Shown one piece after another: positions 8,037 to 50,021 of a stretch of DNA of 55,883 nucleotides; the stretch's first letter is position 1, and the number at the start of each line of letters is the position of its first letter. Below the pieces are notes generated by a model. It was given only the letters and a program-made list of their open reading frames with translations. It did no database searches and had not been told where the DNA came from. Position numbers and translations under genes: made by a program. The stretch is from a virus. Taxonomy: Duplodnaviria; Caudoviricetes. Location of the stretch: the IMG/VR virus record IMGVR_UViG_3300037961_005406, positions 1 to 55,883 of that record; one strand, given 5' to 3'.

Positions 8037-8240
8037 ATAAAATACTAAACCAGATCCAAGTATAAATATTTGAGGAACAAAATTTAATAAAATACTTCCC
8101 TCTCTCCATTTAATACCAACTATTGTCCATAAAATAGCACCAATAAAATGAACTATTACACCCAATGGATATACATCAAAAGAATGTAAACAAATTGCTG
8201 TTAAGATTACAGTTGCAGCTGTGTATTTTAAAAATATCAT
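8019..8240 (-). CDS. Small membrane protein
   Basis: Three hydrophobic segments; ATGA overlap with the upstream oxygenase gene. Confidence 0.6.
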   Translation of the reverse strand: MIFLKYTAATVILTAICLHSFDVYPLGVIVHFIGAILWTIVGIKWREGSILLNFVPQIFILGSGLVFYLIKLS

Positions 8241-8818
8241 TTGAAGAAAATTACTACATTTAAAACTATTCTTATACCAGATTTTATTGGATTTGCACTT
8301 GCATGAAAATGGTTTTTTATAATTAAAAGTTTGTTTGCTTTTGGCTTTATTTTTTTCATTACAGTCAATAATTTAAATTTATCTTTGTATCCTTCATTAA
8401 AAACAACTGTATCTCCATCACTATTATTTAAATATAACAACAAAGAAATATGTTTTTCATCATTGTCTACATGAGGCATGTTGTGTACATCTTTAGTTTG
8501 TATCTTATTATTATTTAATAGTAAATTTATTTTTGCTTTATGTATATAACCCTCAATATTATTATCTTTCATAAGTTTAAGAATTATTGGAATAAAAATT
8601 TCTGCATAAGGTGAATTAATTTTTTTATCTAAAACCAAACCATGAGATAGTTGTGGAGTAATAAAACCGTTTTTAATTGGAAATATTGTATCTTCTATAC
8701 GTGTATATTCTCCTGAATCTAGTCCTAAAAAATAAGGAAAGTTGTCTTTGACGACCAATTCATACATTTGATCAAAAGATTTTTTATCTACAGCATTTTC
8801 AATAATTTTTAGAGACAT
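8237..8818 (-). CDS. 2OG-Fe(II) oxygenase
   Basis: PHVD, LLYLNNSDGDT, distal H (HAS) and R (RIVLN). Confidence 0.85.
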   Translation of the reverse strand: MSLKIIENAVDKKSFDQMYELVVKDNFPYFLGLDSGEYTRIEDTIFPIKNGFITPQLSHGLVLDKKINSPYAEIFIPIILKLMKDNNIEGYIHKAKINLLLNNNKIQTKDVHNMPHVDNDEKHISLLLYLNNSDGDTVVFNEGYKDKFKLLTVMKKIKPKANKLLIIKNHFHASANPIKSGIRIVLNVVIFFK

Positions 8819-12040: not shown

Positions 12041-12508
12041 TTAAATTAAAGATTTTTCCCATCTATATTTTTGAACTGAATGAACTTTTGGTTGCCACTC
12101 TCTATTCTTTCTTGTTGTCCAACCTGTACCTTCTGAAAAAGCTCTTGTTGTTTCTTTGTGTGTATATCCTGCAGCTTTTAAACTAATCCCAGATTCTGTT
12201 TCTAATGTATAAGTTAAAATTTTAGTGCCACCCATTTCTTTCCATATCCTAGCACATGCACCATATAAGAAGCTGTTAACATTTTTAATACCTTCTGTGC
12301 ATGTTCTTACAATTTCTCCTGTATAACCATCATCTAATTTTCTTGCTACAGGTCTACCAACAATTGCTACACCAATAATTTGATTGTCATCATCAACAGC
12401 TGCAATACAAAACTTACAGCCAACTACAGTTTTACTATGTCTGTGATGTTTTCTGACATACTCATTTGCTAATCTTAATGTATAAGGTTTAATCCTCACA
12501 GGCCACAC
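12041..12508 (-). CDS. XF1762-family / Mom-like GNAT-fold protein, putative DNA modification
   Basis: ANEYV..HHRH, GVAIVGRPVAR.LDDG, E..R.CT, SFLYGA, TYTL..E.G.SL.AAG motifs. Confidence 0.7.
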   Translation of the reverse strand: MWPVRIKPYTLRLANEYVRKHHRHSKTVVGCKFCIAAVDDDNQIIGVAIVGRPVARKLDDGYTGEIVRTCTEGIKNVNSFLYGACARIWKEMGGTKILTYTLETESGISLKAAGYTHKETTRAFSEGTGWTTRKNREWQPKVHSVQKYRWEKSLI

Positions 12509-13308
12509 ATACCTTCACACTCTTGATTGAATAAATCTCCTTGAGTGTCATTTTTAAATTTAACTTCATCTAAAGGTACACAAGATCTGTGAACATAGTT
12601 TTTTACTTTTGGATTATGTTTACGCATTTCTTTATCGAAGAACACAGCTTCTTTAAATTCGTTAGGTCTCTTATCTCTCATTTCTATCCAGAAATTATCA
12701 TCGTGAAACGGACACCCGATACAGGCCGACTTCACAGGTACATTGAAACCTTTACCTTCATACCATTTTAAACAATCCTGTCTGGTCATTTTCTTTTCTA
12801 ACAATGGCCATCTGTTTTCTTGCCACCAAAACCTAGATGGTTTCATACGCATTACTTCATCCATAGATATACCAATCCAAACCTCAACCCATTGATTTTT
12901 CTTCATTTTTTGTCTTGGTTTGTAGCCTAATATTTCTCTTATTTTCTTTGCAATTGGAGTTATTTTATATTCTCTTGTGCATTGTCTTCGACCCATTCCT
13001 TTTTTACCTTTTTCATTCAAAGTATAAAATGGTGCTGAAGCGAATTGATTACCACCTGGAGACAAAGCTTTTAAGATGTCTTTGTCTAGATCTCCTTTTT
13101 TAGTTATGTGCACAGGATAAGATAGTTTTGTTTTTAAATAATTTAAATGATCTATTACTGTAGATGGTTCCCAACCTGTATCTGCGAATACAGCTGCATC
13201 AGGTTTAACACCAAATGCTCCTTGGTCTGCCATCAAGGCCATAGTGCTAGATTGTACACCAGCTCCTAACGATAAGATTCTTAGACTTGGTTCTTTGTCA
13301 CGTTCCAT
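12496..13308 (-). CDS. PAPS-reductase-like / adenine nucleotide alpha-hydrolase protein, Cys-rich
   Basis: PP-loop-like SLGAGVQS, FADTGWE, CT..YKI.PI, GIS.DE..R, KSACIGCPF, terminal CEGMC. Confidence 0.8.
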   Translation of the reverse strand: MERDKEPSLRILSLGAGVQSSTMALMADQGAFGVKPDAAVFADTGWEPSTVIDHLNYLKTKLSYPVHITKKGDLDKDILKALSPGGNQFASAPFYTLNEKGKKGMGRRQCTREYKITPIAKKIREILGYKPRQKMKKNQWVEVWIGISMDEVMRMKPSRFWWQENRWPLLEKKMTRQDCLKWYEGKGFNVPVKSACIGCPFHDDNFWIEMRDKRPNEFKEAVFFDKEMRKHNPKVKNYVHRSCVPLDEVKFKNDTQGDLFNQECEGMCGL

Positions 13309-14237
13309 ATTGCTCTTCCTATTTCTTCTGCGATTTGCGGGACGATAGAGTTTCCCAATCCTTTAAGTCTGTATACCCGCCCGGGTACCCCATTAGCCAC
13401 TCTACCCACATCGGGTTCAGTGCGCCACCAACTTTCTCCCCTAGATTCCCCTTGCCACGATCTATCTTGCTGTCCTTGTACATGAACTCCCTTGGAGTTG
13501 GCCACATTATGTTCGGATGTGCTACTTGATCGTTTAAACTGATCGGCATTTTCTTGTTCACTTTCATTTGCATTCTTTCCTTCGAACTCGCTCCCCTGTC
13601 GCAATGTGCGTCTGGTGTTCTCCATAACTTCATTGTCGCTGGATCCACTTGTTCTCTCAGGTTCGATGGACGAGATCTTCCCTTCCTTTGACCTTGCATC
13701 AGCTTCTTGGTTCCTTCTTCTGATCTTGGAGGTAAGTGATCCATTGTGTTTGGAGTAGCCCACAATCCAGACTCTTTCTCTTCTATGGGGCGCGCCGACG
13801 CCTGCAGCTGGAATAATAAACGCTTGGACTTCGAAGCCTTCACTTTCCAGGTCAGTGCACACTGTTTCGAATACCATGCCGTCTTGGATGTTAATAATTC
13901 CTCTGACATTCTCTGCAATAATCCAGGTGGGTCTGACTTCTTTAATGACTCTGAACATATCTGGCCAGAGATATCTGTCGTCATTGGTACCTTTTTGCTT
14001 GCCTGCAACACTGTACGGTTGGCAAGGAAAGCCTCCTGTGAGGATGTCAATGGGTTCTTTGATGTCTTTCGCTTCCAATTTTTTAATATCATGATGTATT
14101 GTAACTCCTTTCCAATGTTTTTGCAGCAATAGTCTGCAGTATGGGTCAACTTCACAGAAGCCTACAGTTGTAAAGCCCACTCGTTCTAGAGCTAAACTAA
14201 ATCCACCAATACCGCTAAATAAGTCTAAATGATTCAT
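13281..14237 (-). CDS. C5-cytosine DNA methyltransferase, main (alpha) chain
   Basis: Motif I LDLFSGIGG, IV GGFPCQPYS, VI ENV, VIII HRRERVWIVG, X LGNSIVPQ; no motif IX in this frame. Likely start is MNHLDLF at 14237. Confidence 0.92.
   Translation of the reverse strand: MNHLDLFSGIGGFSLALERVGFTTVGFCEVDPYCRLLLQKHWKGVTIHHDIKKLEAKDIKEPIDILTGGFPCQPYSVAGKQKGTNDDRYLWPDMFRVIKEVRPTWIIAENVRGIINIQDGMVFETVCTDLESEGFEVQAFIIPAAGVGAPHRRERVWIVGYSKHNGSLTSKIRRRNQEADARSKEGKISSIEPERTSGSSDNEVMENTRRTLRQGSEFEGKNANESEQENADQFKRSSSTSEHNVANSKGVHVQGQQDRSWQGESRGESWWRTEPDVGRVANGVPGRVYRLKGLGNSIVPQIAEEIGRAIWNVTKNQV
13319..13984 (-). CDS. Alternative-frame MTase (beta) chain: three WxTP modules plus motif IX-like segment
   Basis: The frame is open for 278 codons inside the MTase gene. 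It contains WATP, WRTP, WPTP and LNPMWVEWLMGYPGGYT. Candidate ATG at 13984 is preceded by AAAGG. Confidence 0.75.
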   Translation of the reverse strand: MTTDISGQICSESLKKSDPPGLLQRMSEELLTSKTAWYSKQCALTWKVKASKSKRLLFQLQASARPIEEKESGLWATPNTMDHLPPRSEEGTKKLMQGQRKGRSRPSNLREQVDPATMKLWRTPDAHCDRGASSKERMQMKVNKKMPISLNDQVAHPNIMWPTPREFMYKDSKIDRGKGNLGEKVGGALNPMWVEWLMGYPGGYTDLKDWETLSSRKSQKK

Positions 14238-33985: not shown

Positions 33986-34582
33986 GTGCAAATTATTCCG
34001 ATATTTTCTAAACCAATTTATATTAATAAAATAAATATAGAGACCAAAAAAATTTTTAACATTTTAAATAATTTTCATTTAAGTAAATCAAGAGACGATT
34101 CTAAATCTAGTGATATTGCAATAAATTACAATGTACTTAATATGGCTGAATTGAATGAATTAAAAGAAAAAATTGTAATATCTTATGAAGACTTTCTTAA
34201 CAACAATTTACATTATAAAAACAAATTTAAAATAACCACTTCTTGGATAACTAGAACTTTACCAGGCCAAAAATCACACGCTCACAATCATTTAAACAGT
34301 ATGTTTAGTGGTGTATTTTACGTACAAACTAAAAAAAATTGTGGAAAAATTCAATTTCAAAATTTATTTAATAAAACTTTTCATTTAAATATAAAAAGTT
34401 ATAATATCTACAATTCTGATTTTTGGGATATAGAACCATCAGATGGTTTAATTTTAATTTTTCCTTCTGAGATATATCATCAAGTATTAGAAAATTTTTC
34501 TGATCTTGAAAGAGTTTCAATAGCTTTTAATTTATTACCTATTGGAAAAATTGGAGAACATGATAGTCAATTAAAATTATGA
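33986..34582 (+). CDS. 2OG-Fe(II) oxygenase (HxH type)
   Basis: HAHNHLNSMFSGVFY...LIFPS..YH.V...RVSIAFN. Confidence 0.85.
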   Translation: MQIIPIFSKPIYINKINIETKKIFNILNNFHLSKSRDDSKSSDIAINYNVLNMAELNELKEKIVISYEDFLNNNLHYKNKFKITTSWITRTLPGQKSHAHNHLNSMFSGVFYVQTKKNCGKIQFQNLFNKTFHLNIKSYNIYNSDFWDIEPSDGLILIFPSEIYHQVLENFSDLERVSIAFNLLPIGKIGEHDSQLKL

Positions 34583-36114
34583 TTAAAAAAATAGTTATCG
34601 TTGGAGGAGGCACAGCTGGTTGGATAACTGCATCCATACTTATATATAAATTAAATCCAAAAATAAAAATTTCGTTGATAGAATCTAAAGAAATACCAAT
34701 TGTTGGAGTCGGAGAAAGCACGACAGGGACTATTTCTCAACTAATAGATGATCATACTCATTTAGGAGGTATAAGAAATTTTTTAAAAGAAACAGGAGCC
34801 ACTTACAAATATGGTATTAGACATGTGGATTGGTTACGAAAAAACCATTCATTTGTTAGCCCCATAGGATCTTCTTTTGAAAGATGGAAAAAATATCCAA
34901 CAGAAGACTATGACCATATTAGAATTTATCATGTGGCAGAAAAATTAAATTATGTAATACCACTTCAAAATCAATTGATGCTTCAAGATAAATTATATTA
35001 TGTAAAACATGGAGATAAATATCAAATGATGCATGATTTAGATGATGGTTTACACATAGATGCCTTTAAAACTTCAGATTATTTTAGAAAAAAATGTTTA
35101 TCTACAGGCAGAATAACAAGAATTGAGGATACAATTCAAAGTTTTATCAAAAATGATCTTGGTGGTGTTAAAACTTTAAAATTAAAATCTGGTAAAGAGT
35201 TAGACGCTGATTTATTTATTGATTGTTCTGGATGGCATAAAACTTTAATTAAAGATATGGGAGTAAATTTTGTTTCTTATGAAAATAATTTATTAACAAA
35301 TAGAGCTATTTTATTTCCTAAAAAAAATAAGGAAAATGATATACTGAAAAATCATCTTACAGCAACTGCAAGAAAATACGGTTGGACATTTGAAATTCCT
35401 TTACAAGAAAGAACAGGAAGAGGTTACATAATAAATCGGCATATGGTTTCCGATGAGGATGCAGTTAAAGAAATGAATGAGTGTTTTAATGAGGAGATTG
35501 AAGTTAAAAAAACAATAAACTTTGAAGTAGGTAGACTTAATAATTTTTGGATTAAAAATGTTTTAGCAGTAGGGCTATGTTCTAATTTTATAGAACCTTT
35601 GGAAGCTACCGGTTTACATACAACAATTGAACAAGTCGAACATTTTTGTGATTATTATTTAAATGATACTTTGGATTTATATGATTATTATTTACAAAAA
35701 AATTACAACGATCACATTACAAGTTTTATTGATGATATAAGAGATTTTATTTTACTTCATTATCAAACAAAAAGAACTGATACAGATTTTTGGATAGAGT
35801 CTTCATCTAAAAAAAGATGGACAGAAGAGTTTAAAAGAAAGATGTACACTTGGAAAAAAAGAATGCCAAGAAAACACGATTATCATCACAAAGGTAGATT
35901 ACACGGTTTAAGTAATGCTTTGTGGTTACAAGTTGGTCATGGTTATGAAATTTTTGATAGTGAAATAGCAAAAAAAGAGTTAGAATATTATGGATTATAT
36001 GATATAGCCAAACAGCAATTAAATGAAATAGGAGTTTTTTCTAAGTATTGTGTGGATAATGCTATGACTACTAATGACTTTTACAAACTACTAAATAATG
36101 GTAAAATAAATTAA
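34579..36114 (+). CDS. Flavin-dependent tryptophan-halogenase-like protein
   Basis: GGGTAGW, IVGVGEST, FIDCSG, GWTFEIPL (WxWxIP variant), FIEPLEATG. Confidence 0.9.
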   Translation: MIKKIVIVGGGTAGWITASILIYKLNPKIKISLIESKEIPIVGVGESTTGTISQLIDDHTHLGGIRNFLKETGATYKYGIRHVDWLRKNHSFVSPIGSSFERWKKYPTEDYDHIRIYHVAEKLNYVIPLQNQLMLQDKLYYVKHGDKYQMMHDLDDGLHIDAFKTSDYFRKKCLSTGRITRIEDTIQSFIKNDLGGVKTLKLKSGKELDADLFIDCSGWHKTLIKDMGVNFVSYENNLLTNRAILFPKKNKENDILKNHLTATARKYGWTFEIPLQERTGRGYIINRHMVSDEDAVKEMNECFNEEIEVKKTINFEVGRLNNFWIKNVLAVGLCSNFIEPLEATGLHTTIEQVEHFCDYYLNDTLDLYDYYLQKNYNDHITSFIDDIRDFILLHYQTKRTDTDFWIESSSKKRWTEEFKRKMYTWKKRMPRKHDYHHKGRLHGLSNALWLQVGHGYEIFDSEIAKKELEYYGLYDIAKQQLNEIGVFSKYCVDNAMTTNDFYKLLNNGKIN

Positions 36115-36115
36115 T

Positions 36116-36592
36116 ATGAATCTTTCACGTAACTTTACTCTTCAAGAGCTAATTAAATCTGACACTGCAATCAGGTTGGATATAAATAATAATCCAAACT
36201 CTGGTCAAATAGAAAAACTAAAAGCACTTTGTGAAAATATTTTGCAACCCGTTCGGGATCACTTCGGTAGAGTTAAAGTGACTAGCGGATTCCGTAGCGA
36301 GCAGCTGTGCCTAAAGATAGGTAGCTCAGTCAACAGTCAACATGCCCGTGCAGAGGCTGCGGATTTTGAAGTGATGGGAACAGACAATGCAGAATTAGCT
36401 GATTGGATCAATCAGAATCTAGACTACGATCAATTAATATTGGAGTTCTACACTCCTGGTGAGCCGAACAGTGGGTGGATACATTGCAGCTATACACCTG
36501 ACCAACCAAGAAAACAATTCTTACACGCGTACAAATCAGAAGGTAAAACTAAATACAAACCTGTGATTGGTAAAGCTAAAGATTTGGTATGA
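36116..36592 (+). CDS. Peptidase M15 endolysin (Zn D-Ala-D-Ala carboxypeptidase-like)
   Basis: LSRNFTL.E...SGFRS...SQH...AAD...WIH.S. Confidence 0.9.
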   Translation: MNLSRNFTLQELIKSDTAIRLDINNNPNSGQIEKLKALCENILQPVRDHFGRVKVTSGFRSEQLCLKIGSSVNSQHARAEAADFEVMGTDNAELADWINQNLDYDQLILEFYTPGEPNSGWIHCSYTPDQPRKQFLHAYKSEGKTKYKPVIGKAKDLV

Positions 36593-37128
36593 TTAACGTA
36601 ATCCAACATTTAGAAAAACCTTTACTAATACAAAGCACTTTTATTAAAGCAAAAATAGGCGATTTCGATTCAGAATATTTTATAAACAAAATAGAACATT
36701 CTTTAAAAGAAGATAATTCAAAAAATAATATGACAAATGTAAAAGGTCAAATGACTAATTGGACAGCATTTGTAAATGATGAATATTTATCGAAAATAAT
36801 TTTTAATTTTTTAACTCATATAGAATATAATTTTGAACAAAATTTACAGTTGATAGAGGCTTGGGGTATAAAAATGCAAGAAAATAATTATACAAAACTT
36901 CACAATCATAGAAGATGTGATTGGTCTGCTATACTTTATTTAAACGATTGTTCTACTCCTTTAATTTTTCCAGAATCAAATATGGAAGTATATCCAGAAG
37001 CAGGATTGTTCGTTTTTTTTAGTGGTTTTATGAAACACCAAACTAGAACAATTAAAAAAAATGAGGTAAAATATGCCATACCTTGTAACTTTAATTTAGT
37101 TGGTTTACCACAATATAACAAAGATTAG
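36589..37128 (+). CDS. 2OG-Fe(II) oxygenase (HxH type)
   Basis: WG...HNH...SAILYL...F....H...KY...N. Confidence 0.75.
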   Translation: MINVIQHLEKPLLIQSTFIKAKIGDFDSEYFINKIEHSLKEDNSKNNMTNVKGQMTNWTAFVNDEYLSKIIFNFLTHIEYNFEQNLQLIEAWGIKMQENNYTKLHNHRRCDWSAILYLNDCSTPLIFPESNMEVYPEAGLFVFFSGFMKHQTRTIKKNEVKYAIPCNFNLVGLPQYNKD

Positions 37129-43536: not shown

Positions 43537-44253
43537 ATGTTTTTTCAAAATATAACTTTTAGTGCTCCTAAAAATTATTTAAATAATACTAAAGATTACC
43601 CAAAACCAATTAAACTAAATATACCTCATTGGTTTAAAGATTTAGAGCACACAAAAAATAATTTTACTGTTAAAGGTTGTGTGCCTTTTTTAGAAACCTT
43701 AAAAACGGGTTATGTCTTGAGTTTACCCCAAGATTTTATTTTACAATATGATTCATTAGGTGAAATGAACTTTCAACCTTCTCAAGAATCAAACAGTCAA
43801 TTACCTTTAAACAAGCGTGGTACTCATCACATACATTCAATAAAACAATTTGAAGGCTCTCCTATACAAAAAACCAATTTAAACTTTTCTGTTAATAAAA
43901 TAATAAACCCGTGGATAATTAAAACACCTCCTGGATATTCATGTTTGTTTATGTCTCCATTAAATAATACAGATGATAGATTTAGTATAATATCTGGTAT
44001 AGTAAATACAGACACTTATGACCAGCCTATAAATTTCCCTTTTAATATAAATGGTGATAAATATCCTAATCAAGACACTGTATTAAAAAAAGGTACTCCT
44101 TATGTTCAAATAGTGCCTTTTAAAAGAGACTCATGGAAAATGAAAATTAATAGCTATAATACAGAAAAATTAGATTTAGATATTTACAATTTTTTTTTAA
44201 AAATTTACCACAAATATAAAAATAAATTTTGGACAAAAACAATATGGAAATAA
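43537..44253 (+). CDS. Conserved marine phage protein (DUF6065-like)
   Basis: P.WFK...KGCVPFL....GY...NPWIIKTPPGYSCLF..P.N...SGIV.TD.Y..INFP. Confidence 0.65.
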   Translation: MFFQNITFSAPKNYLNNTKDYPKPIKLNIPHWFKDLEHTKNNFTVKGCVPFLETLKTGYVLSLPQDFILQYDSLGEMNFQPSQESNSQLPLNKRGTHHIHSIKQFEGSPIQKTNLNFSVNKIINPWIIKTPPGYSCLFMSPLNNTDDRFSIISGIVNTDTYDQPINFPFNINGDKYPNQDTVLKKGTPYVQIVPFKRDSWKMKINSYNTEKLDLDIYNFFLKIYHKYKNKFWTKTIWK

Positions 44254-44819
44254 AAAATTATATATTAGAATTTGAAAATATCTTAACAAAAGATGAATTT
44301 AATATATTTGAAAAATGTGTTAAAGACAATATTTTTTCTTTTCAAGAAGCTAAAGTTTATGAAACTAATGAAACTGATCAAGCTGTGAATACAAATTTAA
44401 GAAAAACAGAGACATGTCCTTTTTTTAATTTAGGCGTAGAAAGTATGACTGTGGTTTTTTGGGCAAATAAATTAAAAAATATTTTTAATAATGCTTTAAA
44501 AGATTACGCTAAAATCACAAATACTCACATTGATGCAAAAGTAAATACTATTGAATTATTAAAATATAAAGTAGGTGGTTTTTTCCTACAACATACTGAT
44601 CACGTTACAAAAAATCCAAGAGCTATAAGTTTTATTTACTTTTTAAATGATGATTACGAAGGTGGTGATTTAATTTTTAGATTACCTCATGGAGAAAATT
44701 TAAAAATAAATACTAAAAAAAATAAACTTTTAGTTTGGCCTAGTAATTTTTTGTATCCACATGAAGTTATGAAGGTCACTAAAGGTATAAGATATTCGAT
44801 AGTAGCATGGGCAAATTAG
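44244..44819 (+). CDS. 2OG-Fe(II) oxygenase, prolyl-4-hydroxylase-like
   Basis: LLKY..GGF...HTD...LNDDYEGG.L...PSNFLYPHEV..VTKG.RYSIV.W. Confidence 0.9.
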   Translation: MEIKNYILEFENILTKDEFNIFEKCVKDNIFSFQEAKVYETNETDQAVNTNLRKTETCPFFNLGVESMTVVFWANKLKNIFNNALKDYAKITNTHIDAKVNTIELLKYKVGGFFLQHTDHVTKNPRAISFIYFLNDDYEGGDLIFRLPHGENLKINTKKNKLLVWPSNFLYPHEVMKVTKGIRYSIVAWAN

Positions 44820-45367
44820 GTGTAGATTTTAATTATTTAAAAATAGAAAACTTCTTAAAAGAAGATATTCTTGAAGTTCTTAAACATTATTGTGAAATGA
44901 AAAACAGAGTGGTTGATGAAAAGCACTTATTAAATAATCCCATAAGTAAATTGACTTGTGCTGAGTTATCTTATTACGGAGAACCTTTAATGGATTCTAT
45001 CTTATTATATTGTCAAAAAAAAGTTGAACAAAATTCAAATAGAACTATATTGCCTTCTTATTCTTTGTGGAGAACATACACATATGGTAGTTATCTTTTA
45101 CCTCACATAGATAGACCTTCATGTGAGATTAGTGTTACAATTCACTTAAATGGAGATGGGACTGATTGGCCATTTGAAATAGAAGATACTTCTATCAAAA
45201 CTAAACCTGGTGATGGTATTATATATCTAGGAAACAAAGTTACACATGGTAGAAAACAATTTTTAGGAGATTTTCAAACTCAACTTTTTTTACATTATGT
45301 TGATGCAAATGGTAAATTTAAAGATTTTGAAAAAGATAAAAGAGCAACATTAGGAGTAGTAAAATGA
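44807..45367 (+). CDS. 2OG-Fe(II) oxygenase
   Basis: L.PHIDRPSCEISVT...PGD..IY.G...H.R...QLFLHYV. Confidence 0.85.
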   Translation: MGKLGVDFNYLKIENFLKEDILEVLKHYCEMKNRVVDEKHLLNNPISKLTCAELSYYGEPLMDSILLYCQKKVEQNSNRTILPSYSLWRTYTYGSYLLPHIDRPSCEISVTIHLNGDGTDWPFEIEDTSIKTKPGDGIIYLGNKVTHGRKQFLGDFQTQLFLHYVDANGKFKDFEKDKRATLGVVK

Positions 45368-49244: not shown

Positions 49245-49365
49245 ACAAAAATTTGTAAATTTTGTTCCACGTCCGAAACCTCCTAAGAGGCCAAGAAGAC
49301 ATAAAAAAAGACTTAACAAAAGTGAAAAACGCAGTTATAAAAGATATAATAACCAAGGTAGATAA
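49237..49365 (+). CDS. Small Pro/Arg/Lys-rich peptide (42 aa)
   Basis: MARQKFVNFVPRPKPPKRPRRHKKRLNKSEKRSYKRYNNQGR; coupled on both sides. Confidence 0.6.
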   Translation: MARQKFVNFVPRPKPPKRPRRHKKRLNKSEKRSYKRYNNQGR

Positions 49366-50021
49366 TGTATTTTCCAATAACTGTTGTAGATAATTTTTAT
49401 AACGATTTTAATAAAATTATTAAATATGTAAATAATTTAGAGTTTTATGAAAAAACTCAACACACAATGCCAGGATTGCAAACACAAAATTTAAAAGATT
49501 TAAATATAAATTTATATAAAGAAGTTATAAGTAAAGTTCTTGCTACTTATTATAATAGATTCACAATTGAAAATATAAATTTTGAATGTCGTACCTCATT
49601 TGAAAAAATGATACCTTATGGTAAGGATTATAATAAAGAAGGTTGGATTCATTCTGATGATACAAACAAATTATCAGGCATTTTATACCTACAAGGAGAT
49701 TTAGATGACGGTACTTCTTTTTATAAAAACAAAAATGTGGGTTTATTTGATAAGGAGAAATTAAAATATAAGCATGCTCTTTATGGGGGAGAATTAATAA
49801 GTCCAGATTTATATAATAAAAATTTACAAAATCACAATTCACAATTTGAGGAAATACTAAATATACCTTGCATTCCAAATAGATTAGTGTTATTTGATTC
49901 TTCTATGTTGCATAAAAGTAATGGATTGGGTAAAATAGAAAAACCAAGAATTATACAAACTTTTTTCTTTGGTTCTATTTTGGCAGATAGTTTTCCTATT
50001 CCAGAAATAAAAAGATATTGA
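49365..50021 (+). CDS. 2OG-Fe(II) oxygenase (DUF6445-like)
   Basis: VVDNFY...PG...WIHSD...GILYL...GTSFY...NRLVLFDS..LH....R..Q.FF. Confidence 0.8.
   Translation: MYFPITVVDNFYNDFNKIIKYVNNLEFYEKTQHTMPGLQTQNLKDLNINLYKEVISKVLATYYNRFTIENINFECRTSFEKMIPYGKDYNKEGWIHSDDTNKLSGILYLQGDLDDGTSFYKNKNVGLFDKEKLKYKHALYGGELISPDLYNKNLQNHNSQFEEILNIPCIPNRLVLFDSSMLHKSNGLGKIEKPRIIQTFFFGSILADSFPIPEIKRY

Follow-up and report, generated by a model that had tools for sequence, protein, structure and literature searches.

Two fully nested reading frames in a phage C5-cytosine methyltransferase gene point to a two-chain enzyme with a variable module array

The DNA considered here is a phage contig of 55,883 nucleotides (the window: the whole stretch that was analysed, IMG/VR record IMGVR_UViG_3300037961_005406, Caudoviricetes) with a GC content of 33.9%, which encodes primase, helicase, DNA polymerase, terminase, portal, head and tail genes. 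The lead gene of a three-gene block on its minus strand is a C5-cytosine DNA methyltransferase gene of unusual construction: inside the open reading frame (ORF) of the catalytic chain, alpha, a second frame on the same strand, beta, is open for 278 codons from a GTG at 14155 to 13319 (Table 1). Beta contains three modules that begin with the signature WxTP, with tryptophan codons at 13762 (WATP), 13624 (WRTP) and 13504 (WPTP), and a segment LNPMW that begins at 13420. An earlier annotation of this DNA made without database searches (the sequence-only reading) had placed the gene at 13281-14237, the second frame at 13319-14155 and the three tryptophan codons at these same positions, and all of these coordinates and frames were recovered when the DNA was read again.

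By the curated profile cut-offs of PF00145 (8e-56, 190 bits against a cut-off of 22) and TIGR00675 (1.5e-48, 166 bits against a cut-off of 100.65), alpha is classed as a C5-cytosine DNA methyltransferase; it also matches the PHROGs family phrog_363 over its full length (9.6e-86). The PF00145 match extends over residues 14-252 of alpha and positions 1-242 of the 324 in the profile, and thus stops short of the part of the model that represents motifs IX and X. Motifs I, IV, VI, VIII and X are all present on alpha, as the sequence-only reading had proposed, and are supported both by translation and by columns that are invariant among 52 alpha sequences (alignment A2, 52 rows). After a hydrophilic spacer that follows motif VIII, alpha reads WW.TEPDVGRVANGVPGRVYRLKGLGNSIVP, which is motif X. 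Neither a target-recognition domain nor motif IX was found between motifs VIII and X of alpha, and this stretch is under constraint in the beta frame only; the earlier description of it as filler without motif IX agrees with codon-position diversity, which indicates no alpha constraint there.

Table 1. Features of the nested methyltransferase locus in window coordinates. Diversity values are for alpha codon positions 1/2/3.
Feature	Coordinates	Strand	Description
Alpha ORF	13281..14237	-	318 aa from ATG 14237; upstream in-frame TTG 14276 possible; catalytic chain (predicted)
Alpha motif I (FSGIGG)	14202..14219	-	F7, S8, G9, G11, G12 invariant in 52 alphas
Alpha motif IV (PCQ, predicted catalytic Cys72)	14019..14027	-	P71, C72, Q73 invariant
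Alpha motif VI (ENV)	13905..13913	-	E109, N110, V111 invariant
Alpha motif VIII (APHRRER)	13773..13793	-	A149, H151, R153, R155 invariant
Alpha spacer	13431..13754	-	~108 hydrophilic residues; sequence free, stops excluded
Alpha pre-X segment (WW.TEPDVGRVANGVPGRV) and motif X (RLKGLGNSIVP)	13323..13430	-	W271, G283, R287, R290, G295, N296, P300 invariant
Beta ORF	13319..14092	-	257 aa from ATG 14092; +1 relative to alpha; wholly nested in alpha
Shine-Dalgarno-like AGGAG	14105..14109	-	12 nt upstream of beta ATG 14092, within alpha codons
Beta N-terminal tail	13985..14092	-	36 aa, K/S-rich; no protein-level constraint
Beta N-domain, residues 37-110	13763..13984	-	overprints alpha motifs VI-VIII; doubly coded
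WxTP module 1 (WATPNTMD...SNLREQVD)	13625..13762	-	46 aa; type A, commonest, usually first
WxTP module 2 (WRTPDAHCDRG...ISLNDQV)	13505..13624	-	40 aa; type B
WxTP module 3 (WPTPREFMYKD...NLGEKV)	13421..13504	-	28 aa
Beta motif IX-like helix (LNPMWVEWLMGYPGGYT)	13370..13420	-	shares bases with alpha pre-X segment
Constraint segment	14243-14109	-	0.20/0.13/0.36; alpha-only
Constraint segment	14092-13985	-	third-position diversity 0.39; alpha-only (first 36 beta codons)
Constraint segment	13973-13758	-	0.13/0.05/0.16; both frames coding (alpha motifs VI-VIII)
Constraint segment	13757-13428	-	0.37/0.18/0.13; beta-only
Constraint segment	13427-13344	-	0.21/0.12/0.14; both frames coding (motif IX over pre-X)
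Constraint segment	downstream of beta stop	-	third position most diverse; alpha-only

Shuffling experiments, in which one protein is held fixed while its codons are re-drawn either by synonymous permutation within the gene or from the codon usage of the window (5000 trials), show that the double openness of the two frames is beyond chance. With the beta protein fixed, the alpha frame is free of stops in 0 of 5000 trials, and the mean is 6.8-13.6 stops per 115 module codons. With alpha fixed, 8.6% of the permutations made within the gene keep the beta frame (113 codons) free of stops, and none of the 5000 sequences drawn from window usage does so. Over the window beta, 23 stops interrupt the third frame.

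The same two frames are open in relatives, which were collected as a viral sample of 84 loci (the best 80 of 585 IMG/VR stretches confirmed among 600 candidates, plus the window and the GenBank phages Likha, R9.1 and C75C1) and a bacterial sample of the best 80 of 480 stretches confirmed among 600 candidates from genomes and metagenome-assembled genomes (MAGs). Stops in the second frame of homologs had been named by the sequence-only reading as one of the observations that would speak against it. Across the beta match, at 28-93% beta identity, the alpha frame contains no stop in 84 of 84 viral loci, and the third frame contains 6-34; the bacterial sample is similar, with an open alpha frame in 75 of its 80 loci and 4-28 stops in the third, and it spans Bacillota, Bacteroidota, Alpha- and Gammaproteobacteria, Planctomycetota, Patescibacteria and others. 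With both frames open in viral and bacterial loci, an artefact of assembly or sequencing is rejected. A loose motif X pattern is found in the alpha frame of 71 of the 84 viral loci; among the 13 misses, seven are cut by a contig end and six complete ones carry LGNSL, which lies outside the pattern. Of the 76 loci with a complete 3' end, 69 have the beta stop before the alpha stop, and in the other seven beta runs past it.

Constraint on each frame was mapped from the diversity of the three codon positions in a subset of 20 from the 84 loci, chosen for identity of 60% or more, a module count of three and completeness at both ends; 19 of them are unique and have 64-87% nucleotide identity to the window. 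Upstream of approximately 13985 the pattern is that of alpha, which implies that the first 36 beta codons are without protein-level constraint. From 13973 to 13758, third-position diversity of alpha drops from a median of 0.39 to 0.105 (p=1.6e-9), and from 13757 to 13428 the pattern is inverted to that of the beta frame (position 1 versus position 3, p=4.7e-15), so that the filler of alpha varies freely except for the avoidance of stops. In total, approximately 100 codons are doubly coded, with purifying selection on both frames. Stop counts, shuffles and codon-position diversity thus agree that both frames are coding, as had been supposed from the sequence.

Each of the 75 unique loci with a complete 5' end has a beta-frame ATG upstream of motif IV, and in 45 of these it is preceded at 5-13 nucleotides by GGAG or GAGG, compared to 153 of 1323 other ATG triplets (11.6%) in the same ORFs. 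In the window the corresponding codon is ATG 14092, at which beta is likely to initiate. The ATG at 13984 that had been proposed previously is not conserved: the codon aligned to it is ATG in 36 of the 75 loci, GTG in 8 and another codon in 31, and in the closest relatives (L004, L005) it is neither ATG nor GTG. As a general start of beta, ATG 13984 is therefore rejected and 14092 is favoured.

With beta as the query, a word-indexed search returned 1769 proteins at E<=1e-3, and 118 of the 120 matches listed have no Pfam domain. A profile of 77 sequences (A1: the window, 61 full-length matches picked by hand from the 120 listed and 15 derived from the loci) finds matches among the representatives of 50%-identity clusters, 32,484 of them at E<=1e-3 and 2,155 at E<=1e-30, and the window beta matches phrog_1008, the beta family in PHROGs, at 1.3e-28. 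Residues L225, N226, P227, V230, E231, L233, M234 and G235 of beta are kept in at least 90% of the 77 sequences; the assignment to beta of the modules and of a motif IX-like end, made earlier from the sequence, holds in its coordinates and in the conservation of these helix residues. Beta itself has no match in Pfam or NCBIfam, and a search of the ESM Atlas returned unnamed viral clusters only. The lone match of beta among PDB sequences, a photosystem I subunit (E 0.0042), was rejected as a spurious repeat match. Residues 1-35 of beta modelled alone with AlphaFold2 have a predicted local distance difference test score (pLDDT) below 50 and are read as disordered.

The WxTP modules vary in number and order and are reshuffled among relatives, and the variable copy number that had been anticipated is found to range from one to eight. 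Among 198 unique betas (the beta frames of the 84 loci and the 120 proteins listed in the first homolog search), 92 have three modules, 48 have four, 33 have two, 14 have five, seven have six, two have seven, one has a single module and one has eight. Typing of the 402 unique modules of 20-90 residues by single linkage at 45% identity or more, with the others left untyped, gives 45 rough types, and there are 99 distinct architectures among the 198 betas. Type A is first in 73 of its 81 occurrences across distinct architectures and second or third elsewhere, and type B occurs at positions 1-4. Module count is not constant between the window and its close relatives: L014 has two, the window three, L009 four and L077 seven; the third module of the window is missing in L014 and is replaced by other modules in L009 and P0005. 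An extra domain of approximately 100 residues ('...HWFR.D..GF.HPS.EDW..IK..L...') is found at varied sites in beta, after motif IX in P0048, P0087 and P0105 and, as a domain of the same type, inside the module array in L045 and P0216, and it carries beta beyond the alpha stop in some loci.

The nested layout is also present in distant phages and plasmids, namely Paenibacillus phage Likha, Lacticaseibacillus phage R9.1, phage C75C1 and a Citrobacter plasmid. In a survey of the alpha N-domain, for which 12 genes were picked by hand and not at random from 40 'spread' rows of 1654 phage records, five (Javan240, phiMMP03, SPbetaL2, RB16 and Wphi) are canonical enzymes read in one frame, one (CPRSA) is a frameshifted copy, and six (Zaka, Abidatro, Gudmit, S9-5, a Nodularia phage and a Ralstonia phage) carry modules of PTP type or a segment like motif IX in the +1 frame. 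The +1 ORF of the P22-like Salmonella phage S9-5 (L090, 1801-2545) has 247 residues ending in LNPQWVEWFMGWPIGWTEL and covers the whole 245-residue methyltransferase gene, beginning 4 nucleotides after the alpha start and ending 10 nucleotides past the alpha stop, and alpha alone is annotated. Over motifs IV-VIII of the one-chain enzymes of Streptococcus phage Javan240 (L086, 1946-2371) and Clostridioides difficile phage phiMMP03 (L092, 1910-2371), the +1 frame is open for 142-154 codons and the two spans share the end '...SL(S/L)DILE..V.E.(F/Y)FLS.EKV'; these frames may simply follow from the conservation of alpha or may belong to a further family of nested ORFs. Five copies of the nested locus (L155-L159) lie at separate positions on one Roseovarius MAG chromosome, which suggests a multicopy prophage or mobile element. 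In an Oscillospiraceae MAG (L169), an HNH-like insert (CxxC...HH) is present just before alpha motif IV, with a stop within GGFP*PCQ, and looks like the insertion of a mobile endonuclease into the nested gene.

Annotation of the nested gene is uneven. The exact 318-residue alpha is present in NCBI, JGI, ENA and Tara sources, and the exact 257-residue beta (from 14092) is present in ENA-derived gene calls but absent from the NCBI, JGI and Tara sources that hold alpha; beta products that start at 14155 or 13984 are not in the protein collection that was searched. GenBank records contain two overlapping methylase coding sequences in Likha, where both nested frames are annotated, and in several mycobacteriophages, and on the Citrobacter plasmid both frames are present and PGAP annotates alpha only. 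The expectation that standard gene callers would miss beta therefore holds for the NCBI, JGI and Tara sources of the window but not for ENA-derived calls, phrog_1008 or the GenBank record of Likha. Both phrog_363 (alpha type) and phrog_1008 (beta type) are labelled 'DNA methyltransferase' and are matched by the respective chains of the window, and the labels are silent on the two families being two readings of one gene. Because pipelines treat the gene unevenly, predictions of specificity from alpha alone would miss the recognition chain.

The remaining genes of the block, which overlap their neighbours by 13-28 nucleotides, are a PAPS-reductase-like gene (12496-13308, minus strand; phrog_424, 3.4e-47, with a PF01507 score just under the cut-off) and a Mom-like DNA modification gene (12041-12508, minus strand; phrog_1384, 1.9e-30), which may together constitute a second DNA-modification activity of the phage. 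Elsewhere in the window, five paralogous ORFs (8240-8818, 33986-34579, 36589-37125, 44229-44816 and 49365-50018) match PHROGs of 2OG-Fe(II) oxygenase or 'endonuclease V', and there are a tryptophan-halogenase-like ORF (34579-36111) and a ferrochelatase-like ORF (44807-45364); these oxygenase-, halogenase- and ferrochelatase-like ORFs are an auxiliary gene set typical of marine phages.

Modelling of an alpha-beta complex, which the sequence-only reading had proposed as a check, supports assembly of the two chains. With alpha (alignment A2) and beta residues 30-257 (A1) as inputs, the model scored 0.90 and the best of three controls 0.00, with contact agreement of at least 72% and partner pLDDT of at least 66 among runs. 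Of 80 solved complexes, 58 attain the same mark, as do 2 of 110 mismatched pairs, counts that are only a rough guide here because the alignments supplied were our own. In the best-defined contacts, alpha residues 139-143, the strand before motif VIII, touch beta residues 94-96, a hairpin of the N-domain, and alpha residues 290-300 (motif X) contact beta residues 230-236 (motif IX). The only confident contacts between modules and alpha involve the first residues of module A (110-119) and residues 149-151, and neither module B nor module C is listed among the interface contacts. From the model we infer that alpha and beta assemble, and that the paired strands of alpha 139-143 and beta 94-96 would be encoded in two frames by the same T-rich DNA (13823-13805).

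The nearest precedent is M.EcoHK31I of E. coli HK31 (YGGCCR). As described in the available portions of PMC2836561 and PMC3404938, its beta chain is encoded wholly in another frame of alpha and both chains are required; alpha contains motifs I-VIII, motif X as well as a predicted target-recognition domain, and beta contains motif IX; and association with alpha depends on the N-terminal part of beta, with internal beta starts being used. In M.AquI (CYCGRG), according to the available portion of PMC3404938, the split lies in the variable region, with motifs I-VIII on the first chain and motifs IX and X on the second. Both precedents had been invoked by the sequence-only reading in terms that agree with these descriptions. 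The window shares nesting with M.EcoHK31I, compared here by its published description, and also the division of motifs, motif IX of the window being identified by resemblance and from the model. It differs in that the recognition domain of M.EcoHK31I was placed on alpha in the portions consulted, whereas the alpha spacer of the window is unconstrained and the conserved modules are on beta. When an enterobacterial beta was used as a query for a link to M.EcoHK31I, only the names 'hypothetical' and 'uncharacterised' were returned. Unlike M.AquI, the window has motif X on alpha and a fully nested beta, and its motif IX and alpha pre-X segment share bases; the layout of M.AquI, with motifs IX and X on the second ORF, is found in the relatives L134 and L148 and in the genes of mycobacteriophage Zaka and Arthrobacter phage Abidatro.

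The module array resembles the multispecific C5-methyltransferases of Bacillus temperate phages (the SPbeta, SPR and phi3T group), in which several short recognition units follow one another in the region from motif VIII to motif IX. Those units are approximately 40-50 residues long, a size similar to the 28-57 residues of WxTP modules. The resemblance of the three tandem modules of the window (one to eight in relatives) is in architecture only: the Bacillus phage enzymes, such as SPbetaL2, are one polypeptide in one frame, and sequence relatedness of the SPbetaL2 variable region to the window beta was not found (hhalign probability 0.1%). On comparison with known enzymes, the window gene fits best with the M.EcoHK31I kind, a C5-methyltransferase of two nested chains, here with a candidate recognition array on beta and an alpha spacer whose own sequence carries no information.

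With both frames conserved and constrained, a start-site signal present and the modules variable, the locus is considered, with a probability of roughly 0.8, to encode a C5-cytosine DNA methyltransferase that is a heterodimer, its two chains being read from nested frames of the same strand on one mRNA. Alpha would provide the large domain that binds S-adenosylmethionine and catalyzes methylation (motifs I-VIII) together with the motif X helix, and its spacer of approximately 108 residues, merely the other reading of beta DNA, would bridge the two; keeping the spacer free of stops keeps motif X joined to alpha. Beta would be translated independently from ATG 14092 behind the internal AGGAG and would provide the small domain, in which the N-domain hairpin is docked on the strand of alpha motif VIII, the WxTP array faces the DNA and presumably reads its sequence, and the motif IX helix packs on alpha motif X.

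Several observations weigh against this reading. The dual-open pattern is broken in 5 of the 80 bacterial loci; in L134 and L148 alpha ends after motif VIII, and the pre-X segment and motif X follow motif IX in the beta frame, and L101, L147 and L169 have one alpha-frame stop each. Hybrid ORFs that switch frame are found in databases (P0032, P0054, P0097, P0137, P0196 and P0214), with jumps from alpha to beta at differing points near motif IV, alpha motifs I-VIII joined to modules, or beta joined to motif X; they are probably single-base indel errors, expected when both frames are open, but may be natural fused forms. The spacing of 12 nucleotides between AGGAG and ATG 14092 is long. AlphaFold2 folds beta alone poorly (mean pLDDT 55, predicted template modelling score 0.28). 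The 77-sequence profile of beta found nothing among PDB sequences, and hhalign of this profile with the one-chain methyltransferases Javan240 and SPbetaL2 gave probabilities of 0.3% and 0.1%; hence the modules are not claimed to be homologous to canonical recognition domains, and the designation of motif IX draws on motif-level resemblance and the model. Many structures of single-chain C5-methyltransferases have been solved, so that the pass of the model may reflect likeness to, or memory of, that fold rather than binding of this pair.

Among the alternatives to two independently translated chains, a single chain might be produced by two programmed ribosomal frameshifts, with no separate beta: a +1 shift behind motif VIII that enters the module frame, and a -1 shift behind motif IX that returns to the frame of motif X. 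The product would have the canonical order of motifs I-VIII, variable region, IX and X, and there are database ORFs in which alpha motifs I-VIII run on into modules (P0054) or motif X is attached to beta (P0097). Constraint on the beta frame, however, begins approximately 70 codons upstream of the shift that would be needed (the doubly coded segment 13973-13758); the upstream beta-frame ATG is kept in 75 of 75 loci, often behind a Shine-Dalgarno-like motif; and in the window no frameshift signal was seen, the sequence containing no slippery heptamer of the form X XXY YYZ at either junction. Motif X would also follow motif IX by only about six residues in such a product, and M.EcoHK31I functions as two separately encoded chains in the description available from PMC2836561. 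Frameshifting is accordingly a very improbable explanation. Somewhat less improbable, yet still unlikely, is that both chains are made but beta is a regulator or DNA-binding accessory of an alpha that alone is a relaxed or non-specific methyltransferase. This would accommodate the lack of detectable homology of beta to canonical target-recognition domains or motif IX, and the alpha spacer could loop out; it leaves alpha with neither a constrained variable region nor a motif IX, and it fits poorly with a model that seats the beta helix on motif X and the hairpin on motif VIII (0.90 versus 0.00, subject to the caveat of fold likeness) and with L134 and L148, in which motif X is fused in frame behind beta motif IX, tying beta to the methyltransferase fold.

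That the second frame is a by-product of chance, composition, assembly error or gene decay, with one functional frame, is hardly credible. When a gene is conserved, its +1 reading appears conserved as a matter of course, and within-gene permutation of alpha leaves the 113 beta codons open at the rate given above. Over the modules, however, alpha is open in none of the 5000 shuffles, both frames are kept in 84 of 84 and 75 of 80 independent loci, and the pattern of diversity switches from alpha type to beta type inside one ORF.

Between relatives, the two-chain methyltransferase acquires, drops and rearranges modules in multiples of three bases, which leaves both frames intact. We infer that the modules may set specificity or make the enzyme multispecific. 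A more tentative proposal, which seems doubtful at present, is that WxTP modules are interchangeable cassettes, each adding a target, that are shuffled within a doubly coded gene with a disposable spacer to yield multispecific anti-restriction methyltransferases. If so, the beta N-domain would be a subunit interface overprinted de novo, with partner strands from the same bases (13823-13805), the two ORFs would rank among the nested same-strand gene pairs of prokaryotic viruses with the greatest length and widest occurrence, and the accepted account of M.EcoHK31I, with the target-recognition domain on alpha, would need revision.

This kind of enzyme is already known and its ORFs are partly in databases, and family size, the signature of dual coding and cassette behaviour are absent from the literature searched. 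No paper on a family-wide nested beta ORF in phage C5-methyltransferases was found in that limited literature, from which supplements were excluded; the part of PMC6070908 on Paenibacillus phages that was available lists two DNA-cytosine methyltransferase genes and does not mention their overlap. The nested two-chain methyltransferase, known from one E. coli enzyme, now appears as a large family, with 32,484 clusters matching the beta profile. As an example of extended dual coding on one strand in phages, the locus is clean and statistically strong, with an ORF of approximately 770 nucleotides that is fully nested and conserved across phyla; to our knowledge, most claimed overlapping genes have no comparable evidence of dual selection. 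The module array is a testable system for the diversification by phages of methylation specificity against host restriction.

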